DNA from: Microbacteriaceae bacterium
GTDB lineage: Bacteria > Actinomycetota > Actinomycetes > Actinomycetales > Microbacteriaceae
NCBI GenBank assembly: GCA_035556395.1
Contig: DATMFB010000014.1
Coordinates: forward strand, 1-49,175
Length of the DNA: 49,175 nucleotides
Reading direction: 5' to 3'
The notes beneath the pieces were generated by a model, which saw nothing but the letters and a program-made list of their open reading frames with translations, was not told the DNA's origin and made no database searches. Below are positions 19,694 through 48,769 of the stretch, piece by piece (position 1 is the stretch's first letter; each line of letters begins with the position of its first letter). Both the position numbers and the translations under genes were made by a program.

Positions 19694-19704
19694 GGGATTC
19701 GAGT

Positions 19705-25478: not shown

Positions 25479-25509
25479 CACCGTCACCTGACTGCGACGG
25501 ATCTGCGCG

Positions 25510-30559: not shown

Positions 30560-31146
30560 GTCGAGTTCGAATGGAGCTTGAGCTCCTCGGGATACGGACG
30601 CACCTCGACTGAGGAGAATCGCGCTCCCAGCCGAGCGCGCTCCTCGGCGATCGCCGGATAGCGACCGACATAGCGAGTGCCGAGCGCCTCGGACTGCGTA
30701 TCGACCTCGAACCCGGCGCTGTCGGAGCACTGGTGCTTGACCAACGCGAAGCCGCCCGGGGCAAGCAGGTCTCGGATCGTGTCGTAGACCATCTCCTCCT
30801 CCTCGACCGTCAGGTGCGTGACGACACCGAACAGGAGGATGATGTCGAACTCGCCCTCGGGTCGATAGGAGACCACGTCGGCCGGGACGAACTCGAATCG
30901 ATCGTCCCCCTCGAATCCGGCAGCCATCCCAGGCTCGGCGTCAACCGCGACGAGGCTCCCGTCGGCCGGAGTGATCCCCTTTGACAACTCGCCGAAACCG
31001 CTGCCGAGGTCCAGGATTCGCGACCCCGGGGGGACGAGCGGCGGGAGGTATGCCAGCTCGTAGGCAAGCATCGAGTCGCCGGTCCAGCGGGTCGTCCCGT
31101 CCTTGACCTTGTTTCGCCAGAAGTCGCGGATCGTCAGCTTGTCCAT
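30511..31146 (-). CDS. Class I SAM-dependent methyltransferase
   Basis: 211 aa. SAM motif I SRILDLGSGFGELS, post-I LVAVD, and FDIILLFGVVTHL. The 3' end overlaps the convergent gene by 49 nt. Confidence 0.75.
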   Translation of the reverse strand: MDKLTIRDFWRNKVKDGTTRWTGDSMLAYELAYLPPLVPPGSRILDLGSGFGELSKGITPADGSLVAVDAEPGMAAGFEGDDRFEFVPADVVSYRPEGEFDIILLFGVVTHLTVEEEEMVYDTIRDLLAPGGFALVKHQCSDSAGFEVDTQSEALGTRYVGRYPAIAEERARLGARFSSVEVRPYPEELKLHSNSTHVAFLCRGPLAAVAE

Positions 31147-31796
31147 GCAGTCCTCGATTCATCAGTGCGCGCCGCGAGCCAGGTGCTGGCCCGCTCCAAG
31201 TCTTGGGGATGATCCACCTCGACCGTGTCGCACTCCGCGACGCGGATCGGCAGGTGACCCTGAACGCTCTCGAAGACGTGCCCGGGGCCGAACGCCCGGA
31301 CCTCCTCCGCCGGCATTCGAAGCAGTCCATTCCACTCGACCGGACTGTCGACGTCGAACCCCATCGACGTCGCGAGTCCGTCCTCGACCGTGACCCCGAC
31401 CGCGTTCGTCGTCGTCCGCGGCGAGACGCCGACCAGCGGCTCGCCTCCCTCCAGCCATTGGGTCAGGTCCTCGGGGGCGACGAGCAGATCCCCGTCGAGC
31501 GAGAGGACCCAGTCCTGCGCGAGCCGCGCACCCAGTCGCAGCGATGCGGCGGTGCCGGTGCTGCGGAACTCGTGGTTGAGCACGATCGGAACGTCCGGAC
31601 GCTCCGATCGAAGGTGAGCCGCGACATCACGCGCTCGGAATCCGGCCACCACCACGACCTCATGATCGCCGAGGAGATCGAGCTGCCAGCTGATCAGCGG
31701 GCGTCCGAGGATCGGCACGAGGCATTTGGGAAGTCCGTAGTCGAGCCGCGAGCCGATGCCCGCGGCATTGATCACAACCGTGACAGCACTCGGCAC
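31134..31796 (-). CDS. Nucleotidyltransferase, LicC/MobA-like NTP-transferase fold (putative cytidylyltransferase for a phospho-alcohol)
   Basis: 220 aa. VVINAAGIGSRLDYGLPKCLVPILGRPLISWQL is the G-x-G-S-R-L...PK signature. Confidence 0.72.
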   Translation of the reverse strand: MPSAVTVVINAAGIGSRLDYGLPKCLVPILGRPLISWQLDLLGDHEVVVVAGFRARDVAAHLRSERPDVPIVLNHEFRSTGTAASLRLGARLAQDWVLSLDGDLLVAPEDLTQWLEGGEPLVGVSPRTTTNAVGVTVEDGLATSMGFDVDSPVEWNGLLRMPAEEVRAFGPGHVFESVQGHLPIRVAECDTVEVDHPQDLERASTWLAARTDESRTAWTS

Positions 31797-32374
31797 AGCG
31801 CCTCCTCATCGTTGACGATGCAGTCGGCCGACTCGACCAGCACCTCGGGCGCGGCATGGACCAACTGGCTCGCGATGCCGAAGTCCGCCGCTCGCACGAT
31901 CTCGGCGTCGTTCGCGCCGTCTCCGGTCATGACCCTCATGCGTCCGGTGAACTGGGACAGGACCGATGCCTTCTCCAGGATCCCTCCGGTCGGCAGCGTG
32001 AGCGCGCCATCGACGATGGCACTCGTCGATGCGAACCCGCGCAGCCCCCAGTGATCGAGCCAGGGCTGGACCCATCGGTCCACGTTGCCGGTGACGATCC
32101 ACACCTGATCACGGCGCTCCTGGATCCAGGCCATGAGCTGTTGGTGCACGGGCACCGCGAGAATGATCTCTGCGACGACTTCGACCGGCACCCTCGACAG
32201 CATCGAGACGCGACGGCGGAACGACTCCTGGAATGGGATCTCACCCGCCATCGTTCTGCGCGTCAGCTCGTCGATGTCCGGCAGGTCCGCGGCCCGAGCG
32301 ATCTTCGGAAGCAGCTCCTCGGTCGTCACCGTACCGTCGAGATCGAAGAGGTACGCGGTCTCGGATGGGGCCAC
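31772..32374 (-). CDS. HAD-superfamily subfamily IB hydrolase/phosphotransferase (phosphoserine-phosphatase-like)
   Basis: 200 aa. Motif I FDLDGTVT, motif II IVTGN, and motif III/IV MTGDGANDAEIV. Confidence 0.8.
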   Translation of the reverse strand: MAPSETAYLFDLDGTVTTEELLPKIARAADLPDIDELTRRTMAGEIPFQESFRRRVSMLSRVPVEVVAEIILAVPVHQQLMAWIQERRDQVWIVTGNVDRWVQPWLDHWGLRGFASTSAIVDGALTLPTGGILEKASVLSQFTGRMRVMTGDGANDAEIVRAADFGIASQLVHAAPEVLVESADCIVNDEEALCRVLSRL

Positions 32375-32409: not shown

Positions 32410-35400
32410 TCAGGGCTGGACCCAGGCTCCCTGACCGTCGGAGACGATGGTGCCCCGCTCGAAGGCCTGCGTGCACACGCCGGACGCACAGGTCTCGTCC
32501 GCGATCGGATACCCCAGTGTGCTCCCGGCGAGGCCGCCCAGACTGCCGAAGTGCGTGCGGATCGGACCGTTCGAGATGGTGTGCGCGCCGTGCTGCCTGG
32601 TCCAATACATGATCGTCGCCGTCCCGGCGAAGTACTGCCAGGTGCCCGAGGTCCCGGTCGTCGCCGTCGCCGCCACCGGGTCGTTCGATGGGAGGCCCAG
32701 AGCACCGCCTGTGCCCCCGCGTGCGAGGTACGCATCGAGCATCGGACCTCCGACGGCGTAACTGGTGCTGCCGTTCGCGAATGTCCGGATCTCGCCGCCC
32801 TGGAAGGCCTGGGTGCAGTTTCCGGACCCGTCGCACGCGGCATTCCCGATCGGCCAGCCGAGGGAGCCGGAGGAACCGCCCAGCGCACCGTAGGCACTTC
32901 TGATCGAGCCCGTCTTCACGATCACCGAGCCGGTCGGCGCCGCACTGTAGACGATCCCGCGCTCGAAGTCGCGGTATACCCCGGAGACGCCATTCGCGGT
33001 CCAGGAGATATCCGGGCCGATTGGCCAGCCCAGTTCGCCACCCGTCCCTCCGGCGTTCGTGAACGTCGTGAGGACCGAGCCGGTCATCGCGAACGCAGAC
33101 CCGGAGACCTCATGAATGAGACCGCCCTGGAACGCCTGCTCGCACCGACTGCTCGGGTCGCACACCGCATCGGCCGTCGGCCAGCCGAGCGGCCCGAGGG
33201 TCCCGCCCGCTGCCGAGAACGCGGTGCGGATGCGCCCCGCGAGGATCGTCGTGCCGAGGGCGGACGAGTCGTAGACGATCCCATGATCGAAGTAGGTGTA
33301 CGTGCCGGACACGCCTCCCGCGGTCCAGGCCACAGCGGAGGACCAGGGCCAGCCGAGCGGTCCTCCTGTCCCGCCCTGGGCGAGGAACTTCGTGAGCACC
33401 GCTCCCGTGATGACATATGCGCTCGACGCCACCTGGTAGATCCGGCCGCCCTGGAACACCTGCTCGCATCGACCATCGCTGTCGCACGACGCATCGGACG
33501 TCGGCCAGCCCAGCACACCCGAGGAGCCGCCGGCCGCACCGTAGGCACTGCGGATCGCAGCGCTGAGAATCCCCACCGTCCCGGTCGTCCCGCTGTTGTA
33601 GACGATGCCCTTCTGGAAGTTGACGTAGGTCCCGGTGACGCCATTCGCGGTCCACGCGATCGGTGCCGATGCGGGCCAGCCGAGCGCTCCGCTCGGACCG
33701 CCCTTGGACGTCAGGTAGTCCGCGTACACGAGCGGAAGGACACGGGTTCCCGCGGCGGACAGGTAGATCGCACCGCCCTGGAAGTCCTGCCACGACCCGC
33801 CGGCCGCGGAGCGCGTGTCAGAGACCGGCCAGCCGAGCGATCCCGTCGAGCCGCCGGCCGCACCATAGGCGTTGCGCAGCGTGCCAGAGACGGAGGCGAC
33901 CGGTGTCGCAGCGCTGTCGTAGAGGGTCGCGAACTGGAAGTACTGATAGATGCCGCTCGTGGAGTTCGCGCTCCAGGCGGTCGGCGCTCCGGTCGGCCAG
34001 CCGAGCGAACCGCCAGGCCCGCCCGCGTCGATGTAGTAGGTGAGCGCGTCACCCATGACCGCGAATGCCGGGGAACCGTTCCGCGCATAGATCGCGCCGC
34101 CTTCGAAGCGCTGCCACAATCCGGCGCCGTTCGCCGAGAGGGGGAGCACCGTCGACTTCGGGATGCCGAGCGCACCGGAGGACCCGCCCATCGTGTTGTA
34201 GAGATCGGCGATCACCCCCGCGACGCCGTGCGGGACGAGCACGGTCCCGCCCGAGGCGAGAACCGTGACGATGCCCCCCTCGAATGCCTGGGAGCAATCG
34301 CCGCCCGCCGGGCACCGGCTCGCCTCGACCGGCCACCCGAGCGAACCCGTCTGGGCGCCCTGTGTGAGGTAGTAGTCGTAAATCGGACCATGGACACCGA
34401 ATGCGCCGCCACGCGGCGAGGAATACACCGCGCCTCCCTGGAACTCCTGGACGCATTCCCTGCCTCCGGCGCAGTCGGCCTCGCCGACCGGCCAGCCGAG
34501 CGGTCCCGAGGTGCCTCCGGCCGCACCGAATGCGACTCGAACGGGACCGGTAGCGATCGATACCGTGCTGGTCGATGCGCTCGAGTACACGATGCCGTAC
34601 TCGAAGTTCTGGTACAGACCTGTGACTCCGCCGGCCGTCCAAGGGACCTCGTTGCCGGTCGGCCAGCCCAGCCACCCGGTCGGACCGCCCTGCGCGAGGT
34701 AGTAGTCCTCGACCGCGCCCCAGACGGCGAACCTCGCACCCGAACTCCGTGCGAGCAGCGTGCCGTGCTGGAACGCCTGCATCGACCCGGCGCTGCCCAC
34801 GCGCACCTCGTCGCCAATCGGCCAGCCGGGACGTCCTGCGGTCGCGCCGAACTCGATGAATGCCGGCCTGATGGTGCTCGGCTGGATGACCCGTGCACCC
34901 CAGTCCGCGGTCCAGTACATGGTCGCCCCCTGGAAGTACTGGTACTTCCCGCTGACGCCGTTGGCCGTGAAGTCGGTCGTCGCGCCATACGGCCAGCCGA
35001 GCCAGCTGGTCGGGCCGCCGATCGCGTTGTACTTGGTGAGGACTGCTCCGCTCAGCGCCGCGAGGCCGTTGGTCCTCGTCCAGTAGAGCGTCCCGTTCTG
35101 GTAGGTCTGCCGATATCCGACCTGTCCGAGTCCTTGAAGGAGCTCGGCCGAACCGACCGCAGAGCCGAGCCATCCCGAGTTCCCGCCGTTCGCCGCGTGG
35201 TACTCGGCGAAGTAGTCGGGACCCGTCTTCTCGGTCGGGCTGCCGAACCAGTCGTACCAGAGGACGAAGAAGTTCCGATTGCCGTACGCGGAACAGGAGT
35301 CGCCGATGCCGTAGGGATTCGCGAGTGCCGCGGCGTTCGGCTGATACGGGGTGTAGTTGTAGAGGCCGGCCGTCGCATAGTTGCGGATGTAGACCGGGGT

Positions 35401-36072
35401 CGAGCCGCAGGCGGCATTCGGACTCCAGCGGATCTGGTTCGTCTGGAACGCCTTGTAGTTCGGTCCACCGCCGTTCGCCCGGTAGGCGCGGAATGCATAG
35501 GCCGCACCGTAGACCTGACTGAAGAAGCCGACGTAGCCGTCATCGCACGGCGCGGTGTCCGGACATCCGTAGCCGGTCGCAGCGCGGTACTGCGACTGGT
35601 AGGGCCACGTGTCAGTGACGAGCGACTGCTCCTTCTGCAAGAGCACGAGGAGGGTCTTCGGGCTGATCCCGCAGACTTGCGCCACCCGCGCGATGATGTC
35701 GCTGGCGCGTTCATTCGCAGATCCGCTGTAGGCCTGGCACCGAATGTTCGCGGCGACGTTCGGAGTCGCCGAGGTGTAGTCCTTCAGACATGGCATCTGC
35801 GCGCGCGCATAGTCGCAGACTGGGACCTTGCCATTGAGAAACGTCTGAATCTGGGCCGCCGACATCGCGTATCCGTCATAGAACTGCTCGTCGGAGATGA
35901 TGTAGCCGGGATCCCAGATGCTCTGCAGAACCGACGACGTGATCGAAGGGCTCGGCGCTGAAATGGATACGGCCGACACCGGGGAGGCGCTCGAAAGCGG
36001 AGCCAATGCGACGCCGGCGACCGCGACGACCGCGACGAACAACGCTCGGACTATGCGCGACAAATGAGACAC
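32410..36072 (-). CDS. Secreted cell-wall-associated protein: signal peptide, Cys-rich N-terminal domain of unknown function, and about 17 LGFP repeats
   Basis: 1220 aa from GTG comp. 36072 (GGGAGG 8 nt upstream). Signal peptide VSHLSRIVRALFVAVVAVAGVALAPLSSASP. Repeated G-x-LGWP...(Q/N)xF(Q/E)xG modules run to the C-terminus. Confidence 0.9.
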   Translation of the reverse strand: MSHLSRIVRALFVAVVAVAGVALAPLSSASPVSAVSISAPSPSITSSVLQSIWDPGYIISDEQFYDGYAMSAAQIQTFLNGKVPVCDYARAQMPCLKDYTSATPNVAANIRCQAYSGSANERASDIIARVAQVCGISPKTLLVLLQKEQSLVTDTWPYQSQYRAATGYGCPDTAPCDDGYVGFFSQVYGAAYAFRAYRANGGGPNYKAFQTNQIRWSPNAACGSTPVYIRNYATAGLYNYTPYQPNAAALANPYGIGDSCSAYGNRNFFVLWYDWFGSPTEKTGPDYFAEYHAANGGNSGWLGSAVGSAELLQGLGQVGYRQTYQNGTLYWTRTNGLAALSGAVLTKYNAIGGPTSWLGWPYGATTDFTANGVSGKYQYFQGATMYWTADWGARVIQPSTIRPAFIEFGATAGRPGWPIGDEVRVGSAGSMQAFQHGTLLARSSGARFAVWGAVEDYYLAQGGPTGWLGWPTGNEVPWTAGGVTGLYQNFEYGIVYSSASTSTVSIATGPVRVAFGAAGGTSGPLGWPVGEADCAGGRECVQEFQGGAVYSSPRGGAFGVHGPIYDYYLTQGAQTGSLGWPVEASRCPAGGDCSQAFEGGIVTVLASGGTVLVPHGVAGVIADLYNTMGGSSGALGIPKSTVLPLSANGAGLWQRFEGGAIYARNGSPAFAVMGDALTYYIDAGGPGGSLGWPTGAPTAWSANSTSGIYQYFQFATLYDSAATPVASVSGTLRNAYGAAGGSTGSLGWPVSDTRSAAGGSWQDFQGGAIYLSAAGTRVLPLVYADYLTSKGGPSGALGWPASAPIAWTANGVTGTYVNFQKGIVYNSGTTGTVGILSAAIRSAYGAAGGSSGVLGWPTSDASCDSDGRCEQVFQGGRIYQVASSAYVITGAVLTKFLAQGGTGGPLGWPWSSAVAWTAGGVSGTYTYFDHGIVYDSSALGTTILAGRIRTAFSAAGGTLGPLGWPTADAVCDPSSRCEQAFQGGLIHEVSGSAFAMTGSVLTTFTNAGGTGGELGWPIGPDISWTANGVSGVYRDFERGIVYSAAPTGSVIVKTGSIRSAYGALGGSSGSLGWPIGNAACDGSGNCTQAFQGGEIRTFANGSTSYAVGGPMLDAYLARGGTGGALGLPSNDPVAATATTGTSGTWQYFAGTATIMYWTRQHGAHTISNGPIRTHFGSLGGLAGSTLGYPIADETCASGVCTQAFERGTIVSDGQGAWVQP
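32413..35214 (-). repeat. Protein-level tandem array of about 17 LGFP-type repeats (about 55 aa each) inside CDS 32410..36072
   Basis: I counted 17 occurrences of (L/P)G(W/I/L/Y/S)(P/A) cores: WLGSA, WLGWP, RPGWP, WLGWP, PLGWP, SLGWP, ALGIP, SLGWP, SLGWP, ALGWP, VLGWP, PLGWP, PLGWP, ELGWP, SLGWP, ALGLP, TLGYP. The DNA copies are diverged and are not a nucleotide-identical repeat. Confidence 0.85.
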
Positions 36073-36274
36073 GATCGGCACCTCCCTACCTTGCGATCGC
36101 TTCGAACGAGCAGGCGATTCTTCGAGTTTAGGTTGAGCCTTTGAACATTCCCAGGAGCTTGCGCCCAAAGGATGGGGCGCGCCGCGCCTTCGAACCTCCC
36201 GTCGGTAGACTGCGGACGTCGGCAGAGTGCTGTGCCCGCGCGTCGACGAACCCAACTGAGGAGCCGGTAAGCCG
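36073..36274. promoter_or_regulatory. Divergent promoter/operator region between the LGFP-protein gene and the 36275.. operon
   Basis: At 202 bp this is the largest non-coding gap in the window and it is locally A/T-richer. It contains the related 8-mers CTTCGAAC (36100), CTTCGAGT (36120), CTTTGAAC (36139) and CTTCGAAC (36188). A possible -10 TAAACT lies on the minus strand (comp. 36130..36125). Confidence 0.4.
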
Positions 36275-37732
36275 ATGACGTTAGACCGAGGGGCTGCCAC
36301 TCGGAGGCCCCGTCAACGCCCGGGATTGTGGGCACTCCTCGCATTCTCTGGCTCGCTGCTCATCTATCTCGCGGTAGCGTTCCCGAGGCTCGGCGAAACC
36401 CAGTTCTATGGGCTGGGAATCGATGCGAGCGTCCCCCATCTGATCGCGACCCTCGGGGGAAGCGACGCGGGCAGCTACACGACAATCGCCTACGACTTCC
36501 TCGACGGACGTATCGAGGACCAGAACCGCTGGATCCTCAATCTCTGGCCTCCGGGCGTGCCGTTCCTCCTGTGGTTCATCATGCTCGTCAACGACGGCAC
36601 CCTCCCGATCGTCCCGTTCGTCGTGATCACCGGCGTTGTGTGGTCCGCGGCCCTCGCATTGCTTGCCTGGCTGCTCATCCATCGGCGAGCGTTTATGGTG
36701 CTCGGGCTGTTCTCGCTTGCCTGGCTGTTGACGCCGCTGCTGACTGGTTGGATCGTGCAAGGTGGCGCAATCTCGAGCGACGGCATTTCCGCCGCGCTTA
36801 CTGCAGTGCTCGCACTCGGTTTGCTCCTCATCGGCGAGCCCGAGTTCGACAGCGTTCGAGGGTTGCGGCGCCATCTCTATTTCGGCGCACTCGGCTTGCT
36901 GCTCGGCGTCCTGTGTCTGTTCCGAGTCACCTGGCTCTTCGCGATCCTTGCGTCGGCAGGGGCGCTCGTGCTCTACCTCTCGATTCGAGCGATCGTTCGG
37001 GTCGTTCGGCGCCACCGGCACACCGATTCAGCGCCCAAACCACTCGCTCGAACCTTGCCATGGATCGCGGCAGCCGTCGGCTTCGCGATCGTCGTCGTGC
37101 CCTGGACCGGAGTCGTCGGCCGCGTAGTCCATCCTGGAAACTACAGCTGGTCCCAGGGCGACTACCAGCTCGCGCAAGCATGGATGACCGACGAGCGCCT
37201 TGCCGAACTGAATGCCGACTTCCTCATCGATGGCGAAGTGAACTATGCCTGCAAGCTCGACCCCGTGCAGTGCGCAGAGATCGAGGCGACAGAGAGCGCC
37301 ATGGAAGTCCCCTACGGCGGGCTTGGCGCGAACTCGTTCGCCGACTTCGGCAAGCGCGCGGTGCTCACCGCACTCGCCAACCCGATTCCATTCGTCGGCG
37401 CTCGATCCGCGACGACATTCGTCACGTGGATGAGTACGCCGGGCGAGCGAGTCGGCGCGTGGTCAAACGTACCGTTCGGCATCGTGAGCCTGATCGCGTT
37501 CCTCAGTTCCCTCGTCCTTCTCGTTTGGCAGAGCGCGCGCGGGCGCAGCGCAGCGTTCTTCCTGCTCATGCTCACCGGTGCGAATCTCGGTTTGATCTGG
37601 CTGAGCCATTTTGAGACCCGGTATCTCTTGCCGCTTCAGGTCATCGGACTCGTCGTCGTGGCGGTCTACGCCTCGCGCCGCGAGTCCAGCGCCTGGCGCC
37701 GATTGTTGCACCGACAGGAGACAGCACGATGA
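36275..37732 (+). CDS. Polytopic membrane protein, GT-C-like glycosyltransferase candidate
   Basis: 485 aa with about 11-12 hydrophobic helices. First loop has acidic residues ([25 protein letters not shown]). A central soluble loop of about 90 aa contains Cys residues ([15 protein letters not shown]). TTA appears as codon 3. Confidence 0.7.
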
Positions 37733-38667
37733 CGCGGACCCTCGTAACTGGTGGAGCAGGCTTCATCGGCAGCCATGTCGTCAGAGAGCTGCTGTCCCGA
37801 GGTCATGAGGTCGTCACTCTCGATTGCATGCTCGACGAGTCGTACTCGGCCGAGATAAAACGCAGCGTCTGGACCGAGGTCACGCAGCTCCCAGGAGTGA
37901 CCGGATATGAGCTCGATCTACGAACTGACGACCTCGCCCCCGCGTTCGACGGGGTGACGCACGTGGTCAACGAAGCGGGAATGCCCGGGCTCATCCGCTC
38001 GTGGGACGACCTCGGGCTCTACATCGACTGTAATCTCCTCGCGCTCGACCGCCTCATGTCCGCCGCGACAGCGGCGGGCGTCGAACGATTCGTGCAGGTG
38101 TCGACCTCATCGGTCTATGGCGCATCCGCGATCGGTCCCGAGACCGCTCCGACCGAGCCCGTGTCGCCATACGGAGTGTCAAAGCTTGCCGCCGAGAAGC
38201 TACTGCTGGCACACCACGCGAACTTCGGCTTTCCCGGGGTGATTCTCAGGTACTTCTCCGTCTACGGGCCGCACCAGCGACCCGACATGGGATACAACCG
38301 GTTCATCGAAGCTGTGCTCGACGGACGTCCCATCAACGTGCACGGCGACGGGCTCCAGACGCGGACGAACACGTTCGTCACGGATTGCGCGTCGGGCACG
38401 GCGAGCGCACTCGAATCGGCGCGCGTCGGCGAAATCTACAACATCAGTGGGACCTGGTCGATCAGTGTCCTCGAGGCGCTCGATCTCATATCGGATGCGC
38501 TCGGCAAGCCGCACGAAGTCAGGTTTGTGGCCAAGCGTCCCGGCGATCAGCTCGATACAAACGGTGATGTGAGCAAGGCGCGTGCCGAGCTTGGCTATGC
38601 TCCGAGCATCCAGCCGGCGGAAGGCCTTGCTCGACAAGCGCACTGGCAGCGAAGCAGACGTCGATGA
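37729..38667 (+). CDS. NAD-dependent sugar-nucleotide epimerase/dehydratase (extended SDR)
   Basis: 312 aa, with an ATGA overlap on the upstream gene. [24 protein letters not shown], and YGVSKLAAE. Confidence 0.85.
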
Positions 38668-39641
38668 CCGACGAAGCACCTGGGGCCGATCGCTCGAACG
38701 CCCTCGAGCACCCGGCGCGCCAGAAGCGCAACCGGCGGATGATTCTCCTGCAGTCGGTCATCGCCGCTGGCTTTCTCATCGCGATCGGGTTCTGGGTGGC
38801 CCTGAACTGGTCGACGGTCGCGAACACCTTCTTGTCGATGTCACTTGGCGCGATCGCGGGAGGGGTCCTCGCCGCAACCGCCGGACTTGGCGCGAGCGCG
38901 ATGGCATGGCGCGCCGTACTCCGGTCGCTCGGCCAGCCTGCCGGAATCGTGCCAGCCTCGGTCGTCTATCTCGTCGGTCAGCTCGCGAAGTTCATCCCAG
39001 GCGGCTTCTGGGCATTCATCTACCAAGTCGCGCTCGGGATGCGTCGGGGACTTGCCAAGACCCCGACGTTGCTCGCGGGACCGATTGCGGCGGGCGTGTC
39101 CCTCGCGATGGGCGCGGTCGCCTGCAGTTTCGGTCTCGCACGGCTCGATATTCCGTTGCCGTGGCTGTATCCGATCCTCGGGGCGCTCCCGGTGATCGCC
39201 GCGATAGTCTGGCCGCCGTTCGTGAATCGAATCGTCCGATGGGGCCTTCGCGTCCTGCGCCGCGGGGAACGCGATATTCGCTTCACTCGAATCGGAATTG
39301 CGGAGATCATCGGGTGGTCGCTGCTCTCGTGGTTCTGCTACGGGCTCCAACTCCTCCTGCTCGTCTCTGGCGAGCAGCATCCGCTCACGATCCTGGGGAC
39401 GACGGCGATCATGGCCGCGGCGCAAAGCCTCGGGTTCCTCGCATTCATCTTCCCCTCTGGAATCGGAGTCCGCGAGGGAGTCATCGTCGCGGGGCTCGCG
39501 GGAGTGGTCAGCCCGGCCGTTGCGCTGACGATCGCGCTCGCAGCACGTGCAACCTCGACGATGGCCGATCTCGTCGCGGCTGGCCTCGCACGAATCATCG
39601 AACTCGTTGTGACGAGGACTCGACCTAGCGCACCAGGCTAG
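38664..39641 (+). CDS. UPF0104 / lysyl-phosphatidylglycerol-synthase-TM-domain family membrane protein (MprF flippase-domain-like)
   Basis: 325 aa, with an ATGA overlap on the upstream gene and about 8 helices. [14 protein letters not shown] and [18 protein letters not shown] resemble the two P-x-G-x-G-(x)-(R)-E motifs of the family. Confidence 0.65.
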
Positions 39642-41860
39642 TTCGTCGAGGTGCCGGTCGACCCGAGCGCCGATTGGTCGACCGACTGGAAGTCGAGCGC
39701 GACCGTTGACACGACCGGCGAGCGCTTGCCCGTCCGGAGGAGCGGGATGACGTCAACGTACTCAAACGAGATCGCGGTATCCCCGATGTACTCCCGGAGC
39801 CGATCGATTACCTCGTCGAACCCGTGCTGCGTCCACTGCGAGCCCTTGACAATCTTGAGCGCGAACTCCCCGGGCTCATGCTGCACGATCTGGAAGAACG
39901 CAATGAGGTGCTCATAGTCCTTGAAGAAGTGGAGGAAGAACGCCCCTGGCATCCAGGTGCCGTTCGCGCAGTGCACGATCGCTTGGGTCCGACCCTCAAT
40001 CTTGCCGATACGAGGCATACTCCGTCCGCACGGGCATGGAACGCTCTCGTCGACGGCCGTCGCAAGGTCCCCGAGCCGATAACGAACGAGGGGTGTCGAG
40101 AAATTGTTGAGATCTGTGATGACGACCTCGCCGACCTCTCCCGGCTTTGCGGGCTCCCCTTCGACGAGCAACTCGACGATATAGCTCTCCGACATGACGT
40201 GGTGGTCACGCGACGCCTCGCACTGGTATGCGATTCCGGAGAACTCGCGACTTCCGTACTTGTCGTAGACCCGGGTGCCAAAGCCGCCTTCGATGACGTC
40301 GCGAATGTTGTCAGGCAGCGCCTGAGCCGATGACATCATCGCAGGAACCGAGAACCCGGGATCGTTGCCCTCGCGCACAAATGTCGCGAGGAAGTTGAGC
40401 GACTCCGCGTAGCCATCGACAAGGACCGGGCGATGCCGTCTGATGCGATCGATCATTCGGCGCAAGTTCGCCGCACTCAGCTCGAACGCGGGGATAAAGA
40501 GTCGCCGCATGAACCACGAGTCGATGCGTTCGCGAATGATCTGACTTCGTGACATGCCGAGCGTCTGGTGCCACAGCCGAGCCTGGCGGTCACCGAACCG
40601 CCAGCCGGTCCACTCGAGAGCCCGCAGGGTCGTCGCGAAACGCACCTCGAGCTGGAACTGGTCGGCATACGTTGTCGTGGGCTCGCCGGTCGAGCCACTC
40701 GTGGAGATCTTGTGCATCTTCTTCTTGACGTGGTTGTCAGCGAAGAGATCGAAGTAGAGGTTGCGTCGAAGCTCCGGCTTGCTAAGCAGCGGCACTCGCG
40801 CAAGGTCTTCAGCACTCGTGACAGTCGATGGATCGAGCCCTGCCTCCTGAAAGACCTTGCGGTAGTACGGAACGTGCGTGAACGAGTGCTGGAGCAGGCG
40901 GCGAAGCTTCTCGGCCTGGAGATCCCGCATTTGGTCGGCAGGGAGATACTCGGTCTGCTTGAGCTGGAGATAGATTGCCCTGGCATTCCGACGAATGAGC
41001 CACTTATGAAACGGCATCGTCATGAAGAAGAGTTCAAACCACGCCCGGCGCCAGCCCCGATATGGGTGCGGAGCGCTTGGGAGCGGCTGTCGCGTCGGCA
41101 CGACGCTCCGGTCGCTCGGGCGAGAACGACCACGACCGAACTCGCCGAGTGCAACGGGGATGTCGACCAGAGCCTCCGCTGTGACCTTGAGCATGTTTCG
41201 ACCCTCGAGAAACGATTTGCCTGCGTATCGCGGGAAGAACAGCGTTTCGACCTCGACCACCGAGTAGCCGTGGGAGCGCGCTGACACTCGAATGAACGTC
41301 TGGAAATGGCGATACCGCTTGCGGTGGTGGAGGATCTCGCGCATGACAAGTCTCGGCGCGAGCACGAACCCGGACTTGTTGTCTTTCGCCCGATCTCCGA
41401 ATGACACGTTGAGAATCCAGTTGAGCACCCGCGATGAGAAGAGCCGGAAGCCGTCTTGACGCTCGATGTGGGAGCGGTAGCCCTGTGCGATATCCGCACG
41501 CGACTCCTGCAACGCCGCGTAGAGACGTGGGATGTCGGCAGGCGAATTCTGCAAGTCGGCGTCGATGAGCACGACATAGCTACCGCGCGCGATCGACACC
41601 CCTGTCGTCCAGGCGACGGGGATGCCGCCGTTGACCTCATGCTGCTCGACTCGAACGACATCCGGGCGCGCCGCGCTCAGTTCGCTCAGGCGTTCCCAGG
41701 TCGCATCAAGGCTGCCATCGTCGACGAGCACGATCTCGTACGTGAGGCCTGCCTCAGAGAGCGCCTTGTCGACCTGATCGACGAGCGCGCCGACCGTCGC
41801 CTCCTCGTTGAAACACGGAACGACGACTGTCAGCTCGGGGAGGCTCGCAGTGTCAACCAT
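39638..41860 (-). CDS. Fusion protein: N-terminal GT2 polyprenyl-phosphate glycosyltransferase domain plus C-terminal PaaK/coenzyme-F390-synthetase-like (CapK-annotated) adenylate-forming domain
   Basis: 740 aa from ATG comp. 41860 (alternative ATG at 41899). N-terminal domain: LTVVVPCFNEEATV, LVDDGSLDAT, IDADLQNSPADIP. C-terminal domain: LLQHSFTHVPYYRKVFQEAGLDP..LARVPLLSKPELR, ISTSGSTGEPTTTY, YDKYGSREF, ITDLNNFSTPLVRYRLGDLA..CPCGR. There is no stop between the domains. Confidence 0.8.
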   Translation of the reverse strand: MVDTASLPELTVVVPCFNEEATVGALVDQVDKALSEAGLTYEIVLVDDGSLDATWERLSELSAARPDVVRVEQHEVNGGIPVAWTTGVSIARGSYVVLIDADLQNSPADIPRLYAALQESRADIAQGYRSHIERQDGFRLFSSRVLNWILNVSFGDRAKDNKSGFVLAPRLVMREILHHRKRYRHFQTFIRVSARSHGYSVVEVETLFFPRYAGKSFLEGRNMLKVTAEALVDIPVALGEFGRGRSRPSDRSVVPTRQPLPSAPHPYRGWRRAWFELFFMTMPFHKWLIRRNARAIYLQLKQTEYLPADQMRDLQAEKLRRLLQHSFTHVPYYRKVFQEAGLDPSTVTSAEDLARVPLLSKPELRRNLYFDLFADNHVKKKMHKISTSGSTGEPTTTYADQFQLEVRFATTLRALEWTGWRFGDRQARLWHQTLGMSRSQIIRERIDSWFMRRLFIPAFELSAANLRRMIDRIRRHRPVLVDGYAESLNFLATFVREGNDPGFSVPAMMSSAQALPDNIRDVIEGGFGTRVYDKYGSREFSGIAYQCEASRDHHVMSESYIVELLVEGEPAKPGEVGEVVITDLNNFSTPLVRYRLGDLATAVDESVPCPCGRSMPRIGKIEGRTQAIVHCANGTWMPGAFFLHFFKDYEHLIAFFQIVQHEPGEFALKIVKGSQWTQHGFDEVIDRLREYIGDTAISFEYVDVIPLLRTGKRSPVVSTVALDFQSVDQSALGSTGTSTN

Positions 41861-42770
41861 TCCGCATCCAGCTCCATACTCGGTCGAGTCCATCTTCAAG
41901 TCCCACCCGGGGGCGCCACCCCGCCTTGGTCAGCAGGGCGGGGTCGCCCACACGAAACGTGCCCGCAGTCCAATCTGGCGGCAATGCGACCGGGGATCCC
42001 AGGTAGCCGACGACCTCCATCATGGTGTCGGTGAGTTGGTTGATCGTCGGTCCCTCGCCGGTCGCCACGTTGAATGTCCCACCATCGTGTCGATGCCCCG
42101 CGAGTTCGATCAATGCGTCGATGCAGTCGTCGATGTAGACGTAGTCGAGAGCCTGCTCGCCGTCGCCTTTGATCGTTGGAGCGAGACCCGCTGCGAGACG
42201 TTCGAAGTTGGTCATGATGACCGACTTGTACCCGCCCTCTGCATACTGATTCGGTCCGTAAATGAAGAACAGGCGTGCGACGGTCCAGGCGAAGGGCGTG
42301 TCCCGGTCGATCGCGCGCAGCAGGTGCTCACCCATGAGCTTTGACGCGCCGTAGTGGGTTCGCGGAGCCGGCAAATCAGTCTCGCGCATCACCTCTGGGC
42401 CGACCGCGCCATAGGCGTAGAGAGACGACGTGAACACGAGCTTGTCGACCGAGACGGCAGCTGCCCGGAACAAGCGTTCGGTCGCGACGACATTGACATC
42501 AAGCACCCGCTCAGGGGTGGCGTGTGATGAGTTGTACTTCTCCGCTGCGAGATGAAAGACGACATCGACGCCCTTGAGGCGCTCCATCCAGTCGGACAGG
42601 CTGAAAGCCTCAATGCCTCGCGTGTCCCGCTCGGCGGCAGCGGCGACCCGATCCCAACGGCCCGAGCGCTCGTTGTCGACCACCACGACGCGATGCCCAT
42701 CCCCGAGGAGGCGGTCGACGAGATGATGTCCGATGAAGCCGGCGCCGCCGGTTACAAGATACGTCGTCAT
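41853..42770 (-). CDS. NAD-dependent sugar-nucleotide epimerase/dehydratase (extended SDR)
   Basis: Start at [22 protein letters not shown] (ATG comp. 42770). YGASKLMGE. The upstream 203 codons of ORF 41853..43379 overlap the GT2 gene and are rejected. Confidence 0.85.
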   Translation of the reverse strand: MTTYLVTGGAGFIGHHLVDRLLGDGHRVVVVDNERSGRWDRVAAAAERDTRGIEAFSLSDWMERLKGVDVVFHLAAEKYNSSHATPERVLDVNVVATERLFRAAAVSVDKLVFTSSLYAYGAVGPEVMRETDLPAPRTHYGASKLMGEHLLRAIDRDTPFAWTVARLFFIYGPNQYAEGGYKSVIMTNFERLAAGLAPTIKGDGEQALDYVYIDDCIDALIELAGHRHDGGTFNVATGEGPTINQLTDTMMEVVGYLGSPVALPPDWTAGTFRVGDPALLTKAGWRPRVGLEDGLDRVWSWMRNG

Positions 42771-42786
42771 TGTTTTGCTTCCGAAA

Positions 42787-43758
42787 CTAGTCACGCTCAC
42801 GTGGCCGCATAGCTGCGCCCGAGCCAGCCAGCGCGATGAGCTCAGCCAGGCTAGCGCGATCGATGCCCAACTCTTCGAGCGCAACATCGCCGCGCGTGGC
42901 GAGATCGTCGAACAAGTCGTCGAGCCCGTACCGAACGAGCCCGGGCAACTGGCTGCAAAGCCGCACCAAGAGGCGACGAATCGCGATGGGGGCGCCCTCG
43001 GCTCGGCTCGGCACCGAGCCCAGCCGAACGAGCATGCTCTCGTCCGCGGTGCCGATGAACCGGTTGCGGATCCAATCGCGCTCGAATGACTCACGCCACA
43101 CCCGCGGTGAATACCCCGAGTACTCCCGAGACAGATTGCCCGCGTGCTTTCGGTACTCGACAACCGGCTCACCGAGGCGGACGATCTGACCTCGTGCGGC
43201 GAGCTCGAGCCACAGCGCGTAGTCCTGCAACTGATCGACGTTCGAAGGGAAGCCGCCAGCATCGAGGTAGTCCGTCCGCCGGACTGCTGCGGACGGAGCG
43301 CAGATGAAATTTCCGTCGAAGAACAGAATCCGGAGCGGGTCCTCGCCCTCAAACCCCTGGAACTCAGCGGCGACCTCATCCGGCAGCCGCTGACCGACCG
43401 CGTTGATGACGACCGGGGGTGAATGCACGAGGGTTACGCGCGGATCGCGGAGCCGCTCAGCCGAAGCGCGAGCACGTCCTGGAATCGTCCGGTCGTCGCC
43501 GCCCTGGATCAGGACGATCTCGGCGTCGAGCGCCTCAACCGCCGCGTTGTACGCCTCCGAAACGCCACGCGGCCGGGCGCGCCGGATCGCTCGGAATCCA
43601 AGTTCACGAGCGAGCGCAGCGACAAGTTCGCCGGACCCGTCGGAGGACCCATCGTCGACGACGACGAGCTCATCTGTCTCAGCCGCGAGCGACCTGATCG
43701 CCTCCTCCGCCCAATGAATCTGATTGTGTATCGCGACGACCCCTCCGACACGCGTCAT
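42787..43758 (-). CDS. Glycosyltransferase family 2
   Basis: 323 aa. VVAIHNQIHWAEEAIRSL, LVVVDDGSSDGS, and LIQGGDDRT. Confidence 0.78.
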   Translation of the reverse strand: MTRVGGVVAIHNQIHWAEEAIRSLAAETDELVVVDDGSSDGSGELVAALARELGFRAIRRARPRGVSEAYNAAVEALDAEIVLIQGGDDRTIPGRARASAERLRDPRVTLVHSPPVVINAVGQRLPDEVAAEFQGFEGEDPLRILFFDGNFICAPSAAVRRTDYLDAGGFPSNVDQLQDYALWLELAARGQIVRLGEPVVEYRKHAGNLSREYSGYSPRVWRESFERDWIRNRFIGTADESMLVRLGSVPSRAEGAPIAIRRLLVRLCSQLPGLVRYGLDDLFDDLATRGDVALEELGIDRASLAELIALAGSGAAMRPRERD

Positions 43759-44624
43759 CGCACGACCACCCGCTGCGCATCGACGATGAACTGCCTTCCG
43801 ACGGGGAGCATTGGCGCTCCGCGATCCATGAGCGCATCGGCCTGAATCGCCGTCGCCGGCACCACAAGCCCCCCGACGGAGACTTCGAGGTCGTCGACGA
43901 CCGATGCACGCCGCAGGAACAAGATCGTCCCTGCCTCGACCTGGTCCCCGACCGCGATCCCGAGCACGCCCTGTTGGGAGCGCACGAGGGTGCCGTCGCG
44001 ACTCACGACGTCGTCACCAGAAACCAACTCGGCTGCAGCATCGGCGAGCATGAATCCGCCTGCCACGTGGTAGCGGCCCGCTCCCCACTCCTTAGTCGCC
44101 GAATGGGCTGCTTGGGCAGCCCAGAAGCGGAGTGCGCCGAGCCGAATCAGCCCGGGGTGCCGCAGCGCGAGCAGACCTGCCGCTGTCCGCACTGGATCCG
44201 GGGCAGTCGCGAGGTCGATCGTCCCGAGTCGCGAGCGCACCCACGGCTCGCTTGGCCGGTCTCGCAGGATCTGCACGACCGGGTGCGTTCGACCGTCCCA
44301 TGGTCCGGACTCCATGAAGCGCTCGACATCGAGATACGGGCTCGGCGACAGTCCCCAGCGAGCACGATCCCCGAGATACGTGTCGAACACCTCGGCGAGC
44401 CGCACGTCCGGCATTTGCGCGGCGAGCCGCGCAACATCGACAAATGGGTGGGGACTGCGACCCTCGAACTTGCCGTATCGCGTGAAGTGGCGGTGCGCGC
44501 GGCGAATGTTCGCTACGTCCGGGTATGCGAGGCGATAGTACGCGGCGAGGAATAGCACGTCTTGCGGTCTCCTCATCGCGGCTCGGAGCCGCAACGTGTT
44601 GAGCACGCGTGACGGGAATGCCAT
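43755..44624 (-). CDS. Hypothetical protein (no recognisable family), first gene of the minus-strand operon
   Basis: 289 aa, with its stop overlapping the next gene's start (ATGA). It contains YYRLAYPDVANIRRAHRHFTRYGKFEGRSPHPF, a motif type seen by eye in uncharacterised polysaccharide-cluster proteins. Codon usage matches its neighbours. Confidence 0.55.
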   Translation of the reverse strand: MAFPSRVLNTLRLRAAMRRPQDVLFLAAYYRLAYPDVANIRRAHRHFTRYGKFEGRSPHPFVDVARLAAQMPDVRLAEVFDTYLGDRARWGLSPSPYLDVERFMESGPWDGRTHPVVQILRDRPSEPWVRSRLGTIDLATAPDPVRTAAGLLALRHPGLIRLGALRFWAAQAAHSATKEWGAGRYHVAGGFMLADAAAELVSGDDVVSRDGTLVRSQQGVLGIAVGDQVEAGTILFLRRASVVDDLEVSVGGLVVPATAIQADALMDRGAPMLPVGRQFIVDAQRVVVR

Positions 44625-44732
44625 TGCCCTAGTCTGCCGCAGCCGTGCGGCGGAGGGCTGTGCACGACAGCCGATTGCGACGAGGCTGGTGGTACGCTGG
44701 CGAGCGCATTCGAGCGGGAGGTCGGCAGGTCA

Positions 44733-45650
44733 TTGAACGCCGAGGAGCGGTTTGCAGCACTCGGCGCCGCGCCGTTCCACGGGCGCCGCAACGGCGGCCC
44801 GACTGAGTCGTCGATCGGCGCGATCGGGCAGGTCCGCGAGATCCTGCGTCAACGACATGCATTGTCGCTCCTCATCCGGCGAGATCTGAAGGCTCGCTAC
44901 AAGGACAGCGCACTCGGCTTCCTGTGGACGCTTGCGCGGCCGCTGACGCAACTCGCGGTCTATGTCGTCGTCATCGGCCATTTCCTCGGCGCTGCACGCG
45001 GCATTCCAGACTTCGCGATCTACGTCTACACGGGGATCGCGGCCTACACGCTCTTCTCCGACATCGTGACGGGGGGCACCGGCTCGATCATCGGCAATGC
45101 GGGGCTCGTGAAAAAGGTCTCCGTACCGCGAGAGCTCTACCCGATCGCGAGCGTCGGCGGGGCGCTCTTCAACTACGCGGTCCAGGTCGTCGTGCTGATC
45201 CTGGCGACCATCGTCTTCAACGCGTTCCCGTGGAGCTGGGATCTCCTCTACGCGATTCCCGGGATCCTGCTCATCGTCGTCTACGGCACCGGCCTCGCCC
45301 TGCTGCTGTCAGCCCTGACCGTCTTCCTCCGCGACGTCAGCTACGTCGTCGAGGTGATGCTGCTCCTGCTCATCTGGATGAGCCCGATCGTTTACTCCTG
45401 GGCGATGGTCCGGGATGCCGTCTCCACCCTCCCCGGCGGTCCGATCTGGGTCGAGATCTATACCGCGAATCCGCTGACCCTCAGCGTGCTCTCGCTGCAG
45501 AAGGCGTTCTGGGCCAGCGGAGCCGGCGCAGAGTATCCCACTGACCTACTGCTGCGCATCGGGATCGCCCTAGCGGTCGGTCTCGTCCTGCTCGTCTTCG
45601 GCCACTGGGTCTTCCGCAGGCTCCAGGGCAACTTCGCACAGGAGCTCTGA
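44733..45650 (+). CDS. wzm: ABC-2-type polysaccharide/teichoic-acid export permease (Wzm/TagG-like)
   Basis: 305 aa. LIRRDLKARYKDSALGFLWTLARPLTQLAVYVVV and 6 hydrophobic helices. The start (TTG 44733) is uncertain. Confidence 0.85.
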   Translation: MNAEERFAALGAAPFHGRRNGGPTESSIGAIGQVREILRQRHALSLLIRRDLKARYKDSALGFLWTLARPLTQLAVYVVVIGHFLGAARGIPDFAIYVYTGIAAYTLFSDIVTGGTGSIIGNAGLVKKVSVPRELYPIASVGGALFNYAVQVVVLILATIVFNAFPWSWDLLYAIPGILLIVVYGTGLALLLSALTVFLRDVSYVVEVMLLLLIWMSPIVYSWAMVRDAVSTLPGGPIWVEIYTANPLTLSVLSLQKAFWASGAGAEYPTDLLLRIGIALAVGLVLLVFGHWVFRRLQGNFAQEL

Positions 45651-45653
45651 CCG

Positions 45654-47874
<2,221 letters not shown>

Positions 47875-47875
47875 C

Positions 47876-48769
47876 GTGACGCGCATCGCCGTCGTCGGGG
47901 CGAACGGGATGCTGGGGTCGGATCTGGTGGCCGCCCTTCGAGGTCTCGATACGCGCCTGCGGCGCACTCGACCCGCGCCCACTGCGCTCGAGACAACGCC
48001 GCTCACCCGCGCCGACTTCGATGTGACCGACGCGCCTGCGGCCCGGAAAGCGCTCGACGGCTTCGACGTCATCGTCAACTGCACCGCGTGGAACCGGGTC
48101 GACGACGCCGAGACGATGGAGGCCGAGGCGTTCGCGGTCAACGCGGACGGCCCCGCCAACCTCGCTGCTGCCGCGCACGCGACGGGCGCGAGGCTCATCC
48201 ACGTCTCGACCGACTACGTATTCGACGGCTCCGCGACCTCGCCCATCCCGGAGGACGCCCCGCGCAACCCGGTGTCCGCCTACGGCCGCTCTAAGGCGGC
48301 CGGCGAGGAACGCGCGCTTGCTGCGAACCCTGGCGCGACCGCGATCGTGCGCACCGCCTGGCTCTACGGCGAGCACGGGCCGAGCTTTCCGCGGACGATG
48401 CTGCGCCTCGCGAACGAGCGCGACACGATCGCCGTCGTGACCGACCAGGTCGGTCAGCCGACCTGGACGCGCGACCTCGCGGAGCAGATCGTCCGGCTCA
48501 TCGACGCCGGCGAGCCCGCGGGGATCTACCACGGCACGAACTCGGGCGAGACGAGCTGGTACGAGTTCGCCCGCGAGGTGTTCCGCCTCGCAGACCTGGA
48601 GCCCGAGCGCATCCGGCCGACCGATTCGACCGCGTTCGTCCGCGCGGCTCCGCGCCCGGCGTTCTCCGTCCTCCGCCACGAGGCCTGGCGAGGCGTCGGC
48701 ATCGAGCCCATGCGACCGTGGCAGGACGCCCTCGCCGACGCGATGGCCCTCGGTATCCTGGGGGCATGA
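47876..48769 (+). CDS. rmlD: dTDP-4-dehydrorhamnose reductase
   Basis: 297 aa, GTG start 1 nt after the rmlB stop. IAVVGANGMLGSDL, HVSTDYVFDG, and YGRSKAAGEE. Confidence 0.9.
   Translation: MTRIAVVGANGMLGSDLVAALRGLDTRLRRTRPAPTALETTPLTRADFDVTDAPAARKALDGFDVIVNCTAWNRVDDAETMEAEAFAVNADGPANLAAAAHATGARLIHVSTDYVFDGSATSPIPEDAPRNPVSAYGRSKAAGEERALAANPGATAIVRTAWLYGEHGPSFPRTMLRLANERDTIAVVTDQVGQPTWTRDLAEQIVRLIDAGEPAGIYHGTNSGETSWYEFAREVFRLADLEPERIRPTDSTAFVRAAPRPAFSVLRHEAWRGVGIEPMRPWQDALADAMALGILGA

Follow-up and report, generated by a model that had tools for sequence, protein, structure and literature searches.

A conserved fusion of a lipid-phosphate-type glycosyltransferase with a CapK-family adenylate-forming module, and a possible role in tailoring lipid-linked sugars

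The stretch of DNA analysed here (the window) comprises the 49,175 nucleotides at positions 1 to 49,175 of contig DATMFB010000014.1, from a Microbacteriaceae bacterium (assembly GCA_035556395.1). It carries a gene whose product unites two modules with a short linker between them: an N-terminal glycosyltransferase of family 2 (GT2), spanning residues 1-243, and a C-terminal module of the CapK family of adenylate-forming enzymes, spanning residues 267-740. The frame is open on the minus strand over 39638..41899. Read from a TTG start it encodes 753 amino acids (aa); read from the ATG at 41860, which has a GGAG 11 nt on its 5' side, it encodes 740 aa. The original prediction had described a single uninterrupted frame joining two domains without giving a strand; the frame is borne out, on the minus strand, and the motifs VVVPCFNEE, VDDGS, IDADLQNSP, VPYYRKVF, ISTSGSTGEPT and YRLGDL..CPCGR all lie within it. 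The gene and its parts are:

39638..41860, minus strand: GT2-CapK fusion gene, 740 aa plus stop; the start codon (ATG at 41860) shares nucleotides with the stop codon of the short-chain dehydrogenase/reductase (SDR) gene upstream (ATGGTTGA)
41132..41860, minus strand: GT2 domain of the polyprenyl-phosphate glycosyltransferase type, like dolichyl-phosphate mannose synthase (DPMS), ArnC and GtrB by sequence and structure matches; residues 1-243
41549..41563, minus strand: DADLQ motif for metal and nucleotide diphosphate; D100, D102 and Q104 do not vary among 62 homologues
41432..41476, minus strand: residues 129-143, holding the invariant R129, R139 and S143, which align with R117, R131 and S135 of PfDPMS
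41063..41131, minus strand: Pro/Arg-rich linker forming the fusion junction; residues 244-266, predicted coil
39638..41062, minus strand: CapK-family (PaaK-fold) module, residues 267-740, opening with a conserved basic and aromatic helix YRGWRRAWFELFFMTMPFHKW
40676..40705, minus strand: ANL P-loop (A3) STSGSTGEPT, residues 386-395; T387 to G392 and P394 invariant
39725..39727, minus strand: K712, candidate A10 catalytic lysine, in a TGK motif; the lysine is invariant, also in distant stand-alone CapK proteins, where the motif reads SGK

The fusion is a real gene. A protein search with its full length recovered more than 120 clusters of 720-750 aa, which are 58-80% identical to it and cover 97-100% of the query; those of fusion length include the complete genome of the cultured isolate Protaetiibacter intestinalis, with an orthologue of 80% identity, and Nanopelagicales, Acidimicrobiia and others, under database names that say merely 'glycosyltransferase' or 'phenylacetate-CoA ligase' (the latter being the label that JGI gives to members). 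When each species was represented by a single genome, relatives turned up in at least 273 species, and the best 80 of the 273, whose loci we analysed, all match both halves. These 80 are spread over Actinomycetota, Acidobacteriota, Myxococcota, Bdellovibrionota, Nitrospirota, Cyanobacteria/Obscuribacterales, Verrucomicrobiota, Planctomycetota, Alphaproteobacteria and lineages of the candidate phyla radiation (CPR). An alignment of 62 homologues, to which all statements of invariance refer, has a mean column identity of 67%, with strong conservation of both halves and of the edges of the linker; the AlphaFold2 model of the fusion, built on 62 homologues, has a pLDDT of 85.9 and a pTM of 0.81. 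The original prediction had called for a check against a fusion made by misassembly or a frameshift. That possibility, like that of a decaying pseudogene, is negligible and we reject it, since hundreds of independent assemblies, complete genomes among them, contain homologues of full length, and since the conservation just described and the confident full-length model also speak against it.

The N-terminal half is supported by its sequence as a glycosyltransferase of the lipid-phosphate type, with a predicted acceptor. Pfam Glycos_transf_2 covers residues 11-170 (E 2.3e-27), the NCBIfam ArnC model covers residues 8-216 (1.2e-21, below its equivalog cut-off), and a PDB sequence search matches residues 1-224 to DPMS, ArnC and GtrB (6e-18 to 9e-13). 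The top GT2 matches of the model in Foldseek are ArnC and GtrB (E about 1e-13 to 1e-15), with 226-244 aligned columns. The NCBIfam and PDB sequence searches also give weaker GT2 matches, to soluble enzymes such as glucosyl-3-phosphoglycerate synthase. The DxD sits within DADLQ, in the segment IDADLQN of residues 99-105. In the crystal structure of PfDPMS, R117, R131 and S135 hold the phosphate of dolichyl phosphate (PMC5526996), and E19 and R211 of the fusion, likewise invariant, align with PfDPMS E12 and R202 (the A-loop Arg). Helices are predicted at residues 138-154 and 221-241, where the interface helices are expected. The hallmarks of lipid-phosphate sugar synthases that the original prediction had read from the motifs are thus present; it is the invariance of the equivalents of the dolichyl-phosphate site, together with the GT-C and flippase-like neighbours set out below, that points to the lipid-phosphate type.

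The C-terminal transmembrane helices of such enzymes (two in ArnC and GtrB, four in PfDPMS) are not present, and no transmembrane helix is found anywhere in the fusion, the best 19-residue Kyte-Doolittle window being 1.13. Their absence is no argument against a lipid-phosphate acceptor, since DPMS without its transmembrane domain retains activity and membrane targeting, as in a PfDPMS variant lacking residues 230-352, and human DPM1 functions without a transmembrane helix (PMC5526996). The original prediction had the helices replaced by the linker and a hydrophobic stretch, WFELFFMTMPF: the loss stands, but the stretch is no substitute for them. The stand-alone CapK protein P0121 (477 aa, 61% identity) starts with YRGIRRIRFELFF and aligns with the fusion from residue 267 onward, so that the stretch is the N-terminal helix of the ligase module; WFELFFMTMPF as a relic transmembrane helix is rejected, because its hydropathy is too low and because it aligns with the N-terminus of stand-alone CapK (residues 6-30).

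The C-terminal half has the PaaK fold. In the Pfam scan the AMP-binding match is only weak; the NCBIfam PaaK, DVU_1553 and FlxY-type ligase models match residues 294-662 (1e-32 to 3e-39), those of PaaK and DVU_1553 at 294-629, each scoring far below its equivalog cut-off; one polypeptide thus carries the matches to both families, as had been foreseen. Residues 302-628 match PaaK in the PDB sequence search (1e-33), and Foldseek aligns the model with PaaK1 (2y27) over about 437 columns, C-terminal subdomain included (E 4.9e-28; TM-score 0.69, normalised to the target). Together with the ANL motifs and the precomputed PF27533 CapK_C matches on the window protein and its homologues, some of them marked weak, these agree with the earlier description of this half as an adenylate-forming, PaaK-like protein of COG1541 and the CapK type. 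Invariant in the 62 homologues, besides the P-loop, are Y535, G536 and E539 (A5), D583 (A7), R593, R595, G597 and D598 (A8), the hinge residues G623 and R624, and G711 and K712 (A10); stand-alone CapK proteins with 30-34% identity have the same core motifs. With a complete PaaK fold in the model and invariant A3, A5, A7, A8 and A10 motifs, the ligase half looks catalytically competent, and the catalytic motifs are intact in both halves of the protein. We reject its identification as a true PaaK or a coenzyme F390 synthetase, since the PaaK-family scores (113.3 and 107.8 bits) fall below the equivalog cut-offs (700 and 646.3) and the gene stands in a polysaccharide locus. The segment that forms the aryl-acid pocket in PaaK is replaced in the fusion family by an invariant polar and aromatic RLWHQTLGMSR. 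Structural matches of this half also include the PaaK-family proteins NatL2 and ClxA (18-21% identity), which form ester or amide bonds without coenzyme A (CoA).

Residues 287-740, used alone in an exhaustive profile-free search, match 25,055 representative clusters at E <=1e-3 and 4,306 at E <=1e-30. The 30 best representatives are 39-66% identical, and 21 of them are proteins of 679-755 aa matched at the C-terminal end, while six have stand-alone length; beyond these 30 come ordinary CapK-like proteins of 440-470 aa at 30-37% identity. On the question of split orthologues, raised by the original prediction, one split locus was found: that of P0121, with an SDR (308 aa), a GT2 (243 aa), the CapK protein (477 aa), a second SDR (317 aa) and two methyltransferases. 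Since the separate genes stand in the order of the fused domains, the locus is a Rosetta stone for two activities that work together. CapK-GT4, GT4-CapK and tandem CapK-CapK architectures (the last of ~960 aa, a double ANL) exist as well (P0207, P0264, P0142, P0147, P0162), none of these proteins bearing an informative name. A functional coupling of the GT2 and CapK activities, which the original prediction had put as activation coupled to the lipid-sugar step, is supported at the sequence level by the conserved fusion, the split form in the same order and the CapK-GT4 fusions. No curated family spanning the full-length fusion was found in the NCBIfam search, and literature searches for the fusion, or for PaaK-like proteins in a polysaccharide context, returned no description of it; the earlier statement that no characterised enzyme of this architecture was known holds for the literature searched and for the database names.

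A stand-alone CapK protein of 44% identity (P0137, L088:8394-9752) lies in a Wzx-type heteropolysaccharide cluster that also has GT4 genes and DegT aminotransferases; it is followed by an overlapping DUF362 gene, whose product is a possible partner.

The fusion belongs to a conserved cassette, which in the window consists of the following neighbours:

41853..42770, minus strand: SDR1, a GalE-like extended SDR of ~305 aa, translationally coupled to the fusion; the start at ~42770 is set from MTTYLVTGG and the length of orthologues
38664..39641, plus strand: LPG_synthase_TM (MprF-flippase-like) polytopic protein, candidate flippase; convergent with the fusion, with a 4-nt overlap
37729..38667, plus strand: SDR2, UDP-glucuronic acid (UDP-GlcA) 4-epimerase-like; keeps the equivalents of BcUGAepi T126, S127, S128, Y149, K153 and R185
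36275..37732, plus strand: polytopic membrane protein of 485 aa, in a rare family of 468-485 aa with a GT-C-like predicted fold

SDR1 is the most conserved neighbour. In 49 of the 73 loci with enough upstream sequence it is the gene immediately upstream of the fusion and has the same orientation; in 36 of the 47 loci with 4-kb flanks, which serve for the remaining counts, it is no more than three genes away. In all seven loci with gene calls a GalE-like SDR (~305-366 aa) precedes the fusion, its end overlapping the fusion start, and these seven proteins are mutual orthologues (51-72% identity). A polytopic membrane protein (at least 7 transmembrane helices and at least 400 aa) is found within three genes in 39/47 loci, an SDR2-like gene in 17/47 and an Emb-like (Arabinose_trans-like) protein in 7/47; within four genes lie a methyltransferase (15/47), a PMT_2-like protein (7/47), a PMT-like protein (3/47) and a UDP-glucose dehydrogenase (2/47). 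The recognised GT-C neighbours are Arabinose_trans (Emb-like) proteins in actinobacterial and related loci and a PMT protein in a CPR locus; PMT_2 accounts for three of ten sampled neighbouring membrane proteins. LPG_synthase_TM occurs in three of the seven distinct loci with gene tables, namely the window, L001 of Protaetiibacter and L006, and the set of LPG_synthase_TM, SDR2 and 485-aa protein recurs in L001. Genes for GT-C transferases and for a flippase candidate thus accompany the fusion. A route of the carboxylic-acid-reductase kind, in which SDR1 would reduce what the adenylating domain had activated, was set aside: a carrier domain is lacking, and SDR1 shows the epimerase pattern TSS/YxxxK and scores much better as an epimerase than as a thioester reductase.

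In L002 (Nanopelagicales) and L007 the cassette stands among two Emb-like GT-C genes and a LytR_cpsA_psr gene, and L007 also encodes a GLF-domain (UDP-galactopyranose mutase) protein of 919 aa; this is a set of arabinogalactan-like wall genes in actinobacteria without mycolic acids.

Two products of the window's cassette are informative about what the pathway might handle. The top matches of SDR2 are the UDP-GlcA 4-epimerase structures of Bacillus cereus (6zl6, 2.3e-57) and MoeE5 (2.3e-50), and among the residues that it keeps is the equivalent of R185 of BcUGAepi, the binder of the carboxylate of UDP-galacturonic acid (UDP-GalA). The 485-aa protein has no match in the PDB sequence search, Pfam or NCBIfam; its family comprises 12 homologues, every one of them 'hypothetical', and the acidic residues D47, D57 and D60 of the first loop are conserved. 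The top 11 PDB matches of its AlphaFold2 model (pLDDT 80, pTM 0.83) are all GT-C enzymes (STT3, AglB, PglB, ArnT, ALG3, Pmt4, EmbA/B and DPY19), with probabilities mostly of 0.97-1.00 and of 0.66-0.72 for PglB 6gxc and EmbA/B, which is suggestive of a GT-C glycosyltransferase.

We propose that the fusion protein would be a bifunctional, peripherally membrane-bound enzyme of an Arn/Gtr/Rgt-like pathway, by which the envelope would be decorated from outside the membrane as with ArnC/ArnT, GtrB/GtrC and RgtE/RgtA-D; for this general mechanism we see the chances as even. The SDRs would ready the nucleotide sugar: SDR2 probably converts UDP-GlcA to UDP-GalA, and SDR1 may act as a GalE-like epimerase. 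The GT2 domain would place the sugar on polyprenyl phosphate, giving a polyprenyl-P-monosaccharide. The CapK module would use ATP to form an acyl-adenylate, most likely at the C6 carboxylate of a uronic acid, and an amine (less likely an alcohol) would then take up the activated group to give an amide, neutralising or re-functionalising the sugar. The tailored lipid-linked sugar would be flipped, the candidate here being the MprF-like LPG_synthase_TM protein, and handed by a GT-C enzyme to a wall glycopolymer; that enzyme would be the 485-aa protein in the window and Emb-like, PMT_2 or PMT proteins elsewhere. In this scheme we infer that the acceptor is a lipid, which sugar it receives, which groups serve as carboxylate and nucleophile, and whether glycosyl transfer or activation comes first.

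Each half is of a known kind and the logic of the pathway is known from several systems. Closest for the N-terminal domain is the ArnC/ArnD/ArnEF/ArnT pathway, whose ArnC is its top structural match: a GT2 with DADLQN makes a polyprenyl-P-monosaccharide that is tailored while lipid-linked, flipped and transferred by a GT-C enzyme. ArnD is the precedent for tailoring a lipid-linked monosaccharide; what it catalyses, however, is deformylation by hydrolysis rather than a ligation driven by ATP, and ArnC has two transmembrane helices, no fused tailoring domain and a different sugar. GtrB/GtrA/GtrC and the three-component CsbB/GtcA/YfhO system likewise run from a cytoplasmic GT2 through an undecaprenyl-phosphate (C55-P) sugar and a small flippase to an extracytoplasmic GT-C enzyme, and GtrB is among the top structural matches, but these systems lack an adenylating module and use flippases of the GtrA family rather than LPG_synthase_TM. 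By kinds of genes, the window resembles the Rhizobium RgtE/LpsL/RgtA-D system, with its UDP-GlcA 4-epimerase, a GT2 for bactoprenyl-P-GalA and GT-C users (PMC7663294): SDR2, the GT2 domain and the GT-C-like protein are the same three kinds. RgtE, however, has no adenylating domain and the GalA is passed on unmodified. DPMS, in PfDPMS and human DPM1, shares with the N-terminal half the GT-A fold, DADLQ, the Arg/Arg/Ser triad and, by prediction, helices at the expected place of the interface helices, and differs in that the fusion scores below every equivalog cut-off, has Gln for K178 and carries an additional ligase module of 470 aa.

On the ligase side, PaaK (2y27, 4r1l) has the same two-subdomain ANL fold with P-loop, A5, A8, A10 and CPCGR motif; it is only 23-25% identical, its aryl-acid pocket is the replaced segment, the scores are far below its cut-offs, and the fusion has no context of aromatic catabolism. 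NatL2 and ClxA illustrate that the PaaK fold is not limited to phenylacetate activation, though they belong to secondary metabolism and take aromatic acids as substrates. The name-giving CapK comes from the type 1 capsule locus of Staphylococcus aureus. In that capsule taurine is amide-linked to N-acetylgalactosaminuronic acid (PMC12043029), and in Vibrio cholerae the CapK/PaaK-like protein VpsH, likened here by the paper's description of it, is genetically required for glycine to be joined to the carboxylate of a uronic acid linked to bactoprenyl-PP (2026 study, PMC13463779). These are PaaK-like CapK-family proteins of polysaccharide loci; unlike the fusion they stand alone, in Wzx/Wzy pathways that act on polyprenyl-PP-oligosaccharides, and the part played by VpsH is known from genetics.

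The precedent of VpsH, the taurine amide of the capsule whose locus gave CapK its name, and the UDP-GlcA 4-epimerase-like gene in 17 of the 47 loci favour amidation of the uronic acid's own carboxylate by the CapK module, which we hold to be a tentative reading, possible rather than probable. The amide on a hexuronic acid that the original prediction had offered as an example is accordingly backed circumstantially, by the signature of SDR2 and the genetics of VpsH, and is weakened by the same count, which leaves SDR2-like genes near only a minority of fusions. Several observations weigh against the proposal. About two-thirds of the loci have no SDR2-like gene near the fusion, and with UDP-glucose dehydrogenase as rare as it is, a uronic acid donor is not generally established. 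The neighbour survey found no conserved amine-supplying gene in the cassette, and the proposal does not account for SDR1, the neighbour most constantly linked to the fusion. The position of PfDPMS K178 is an invariant Gln (Q187) in the fusion family, and the GT-C matches of the 485-aa protein have weak Foldseek E-values (0.02-0.4). In Polyangia (L040:2853-3788, L043 and L056) a divergent NodB-family deacetylase and a major facilitator superfamily transporter replace SDR1, which fits better with N-acylation of an amino sugar; by their gene content, these loci hint at a variant pathway acting on such a sugar.

A polysaccharide deacetylase beside the fusion would expose a sugar amine, which would suit the main rival explanation, in which the sugar, lipid- or nucleotide-bound, gives the nucleophile rather than the carboxylate: the CapK module would activate a free small acid (amino, short hydroxy or keto) and N- or O-acylate the sugar. 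Characterised enzymes of the PaaK family do use free small acids (PaaK, HCL, AjiA1, NatL2 and ClxA), and most loci are without SDR2 or UDP-glucose dehydrogenase nearby; but no conserved aminotransferase or acid-supplying gene is found in the cassette, the equivalent of the aryl-acid pocket has given way to RLWHQTLGMSR, VpsH, as the sole genetically studied CapK-like protein, acts at a sugar carboxylate, and the window has its UDP-GlcA 4-epimerase-like gene. On balance we consider it unlikely. If instead the CapK module were an ordinary acyl-CoA ligase feeding a separate polymer acyltransferase, as its nearest solved structures, which are CoA ligases, and the JGI label of phenylacetate-CoA ligase might suggest, one would have to set aside scores of 113 and 108 bits against PaaK equivalog cut-offs of 700 and 646, the lack of a conserved acyltransferase in the cassette, and the fusion to glycosyltransferases of two different folds, which points to action on a glycan; to this we give very little weight. 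A chemistry like that of coenzyme F390 synthetase, in which no carboxylate would be activated and the lipid-linked sugar would receive AMP on a hydroxyl or a phosphate, we find hardly credible: the weak F390 synthetase matches (TIGR03335 5e-14, TIGR02304 7e-13) are far outdone by those of the PaaK type, and the context lends it no support.

The glycosyltransferase half, too, could be read otherwise, with a soluble or glycan acceptor, so that it would make a soluble glycoconjugate or place the tailored sugar straight onto a growing chain. The lack of transmembrane helices, the weaker matches to soluble GT2 enzymes such as glucosyl-3-phosphoglycerate synthase and the frequent methyltransferase neighbours would agree with this. 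It is nevertheless quite improbable, given that the equivalents of the dolichyl-phosphate phosphate-binding triad are invariant, that ArnC and GtrB are the best structural matches, that GT-C neighbours recur, enzymes which need lipid-phosphate sugar donors, and that forms of DPMS without transmembrane helices are active.

What is new here is that a lipid-phosphate-sugar synthase and an adenylate-forming tailoring module are covalently coupled, and conserved in this form in many phyla, with a conserved SDR and GT-C cassette. Envelope modifications made with polyprenyl-phosphate-sugar donors change charge, immune recognition and the susceptibility to antibiotics and phages; among them are 4-amino-4-deoxy-L-arabinose on lipid A, galactosamine on arabinogalactan, and glucosylated O-antigens and teichoic acids. 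Donor synthesis and ATP-dependent ligation in one protein would amount to a new tailoring chemistry at the level of the lipid-monosaccharide. That the cassette is an unrecognised and phylogenetically broad pathway, in which a polyprenyl-P-monosaccharide is amidated or acylated on its carrier by a domain fused to its synthase, is a possibility we put forward with reserve. If it is true, there would be a new class of lipid-linked donors, for example polyprenyl-P-galacturonamide or an aminoacyl-uronate, used by Emb-like, PMT-like or novel GT-C enzymes on the envelopes of Actinomycetota (freshwater Nanopelagicales included), Acidobacteriota, Myxococcota and CPR bacteria. Donors are thereby suggested for new GT-C families as well as for the uncharacterised Emb-like GT-C enzymes that non-mycolate actinobacteria possess. 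The CapK family, with its ~25,000 representative clusters, mostly unassigned, gains a testable biochemical role, and because the fusion ties the ligase to the enzyme that likely makes its substrate, the search for that substrate becomes narrower. The cassette also occurs in abundant uncultured lineages with little-explored envelope chemistry, such as Nanopelagicales, Vicinamibacteria and CPR.

The surroundings of the cassette in the window, with Wzm/Wzt, rmlABCD, further GT2 genes and an LGFP-repeat protein, are those of a wall-glycopolymer locus:

18833-20310, minus strand: rmlA and rmlC
24006-25769, minus strand: 587-aa protein with a weak PMT_2 (GT-C) match (E 3e-5, just under the cut-off)
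30511-32374, minus strand: class I methyltransferase, MobA/IspD-like nucleotidyltransferase and HAD hydrolase in a row
32410-36300, minus strand: 1296-aa wall-associated protein with 10 LGFP repeats, adjoining the cassette
42787..43758, minus strand: second, ordinary GT2 glycosyltransferase, upstream of SDR1; not conserved at other loci
43755-44624, minus strand: open reading frame of 289 aa without a match in Pfam or NCBIfam, flanked by the extra GT2 gene and the divergent Wzm gene
44733..46841, plus strand: Wzm/Wzt-type ABC transporter by domain matches (ABC2_membrane, then ABC_tran and Wzt_C)
46879-48769, plus strand: rmlB and rmlD

The rml genes and Wzm/Wzt together make up the equipment for a rhamnose-containing wall polysaccharide of the ABC-transporter-dependent kind, which is likely the acceptor polymer, and the transporter probably exports the decorated glycopolymer. 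The window has a further candidate for the use of a lipid-P-sugar donor in the 587-aa protein, and the trio of methyltransferase, nucleotidyltransferase and HAD hydrolase may form a pathway for an activated polyol or a phospho-substituent. A large LGFP protein is also close to the fusion in the Protaetiibacter locus L001. The GC content is 0.61-0.65 across ~35000-47000, as against 0.67-0.73 in the flanks, and the glycopolymer-decoration locus in its entirety may be an island that has been exchanged horizontally.

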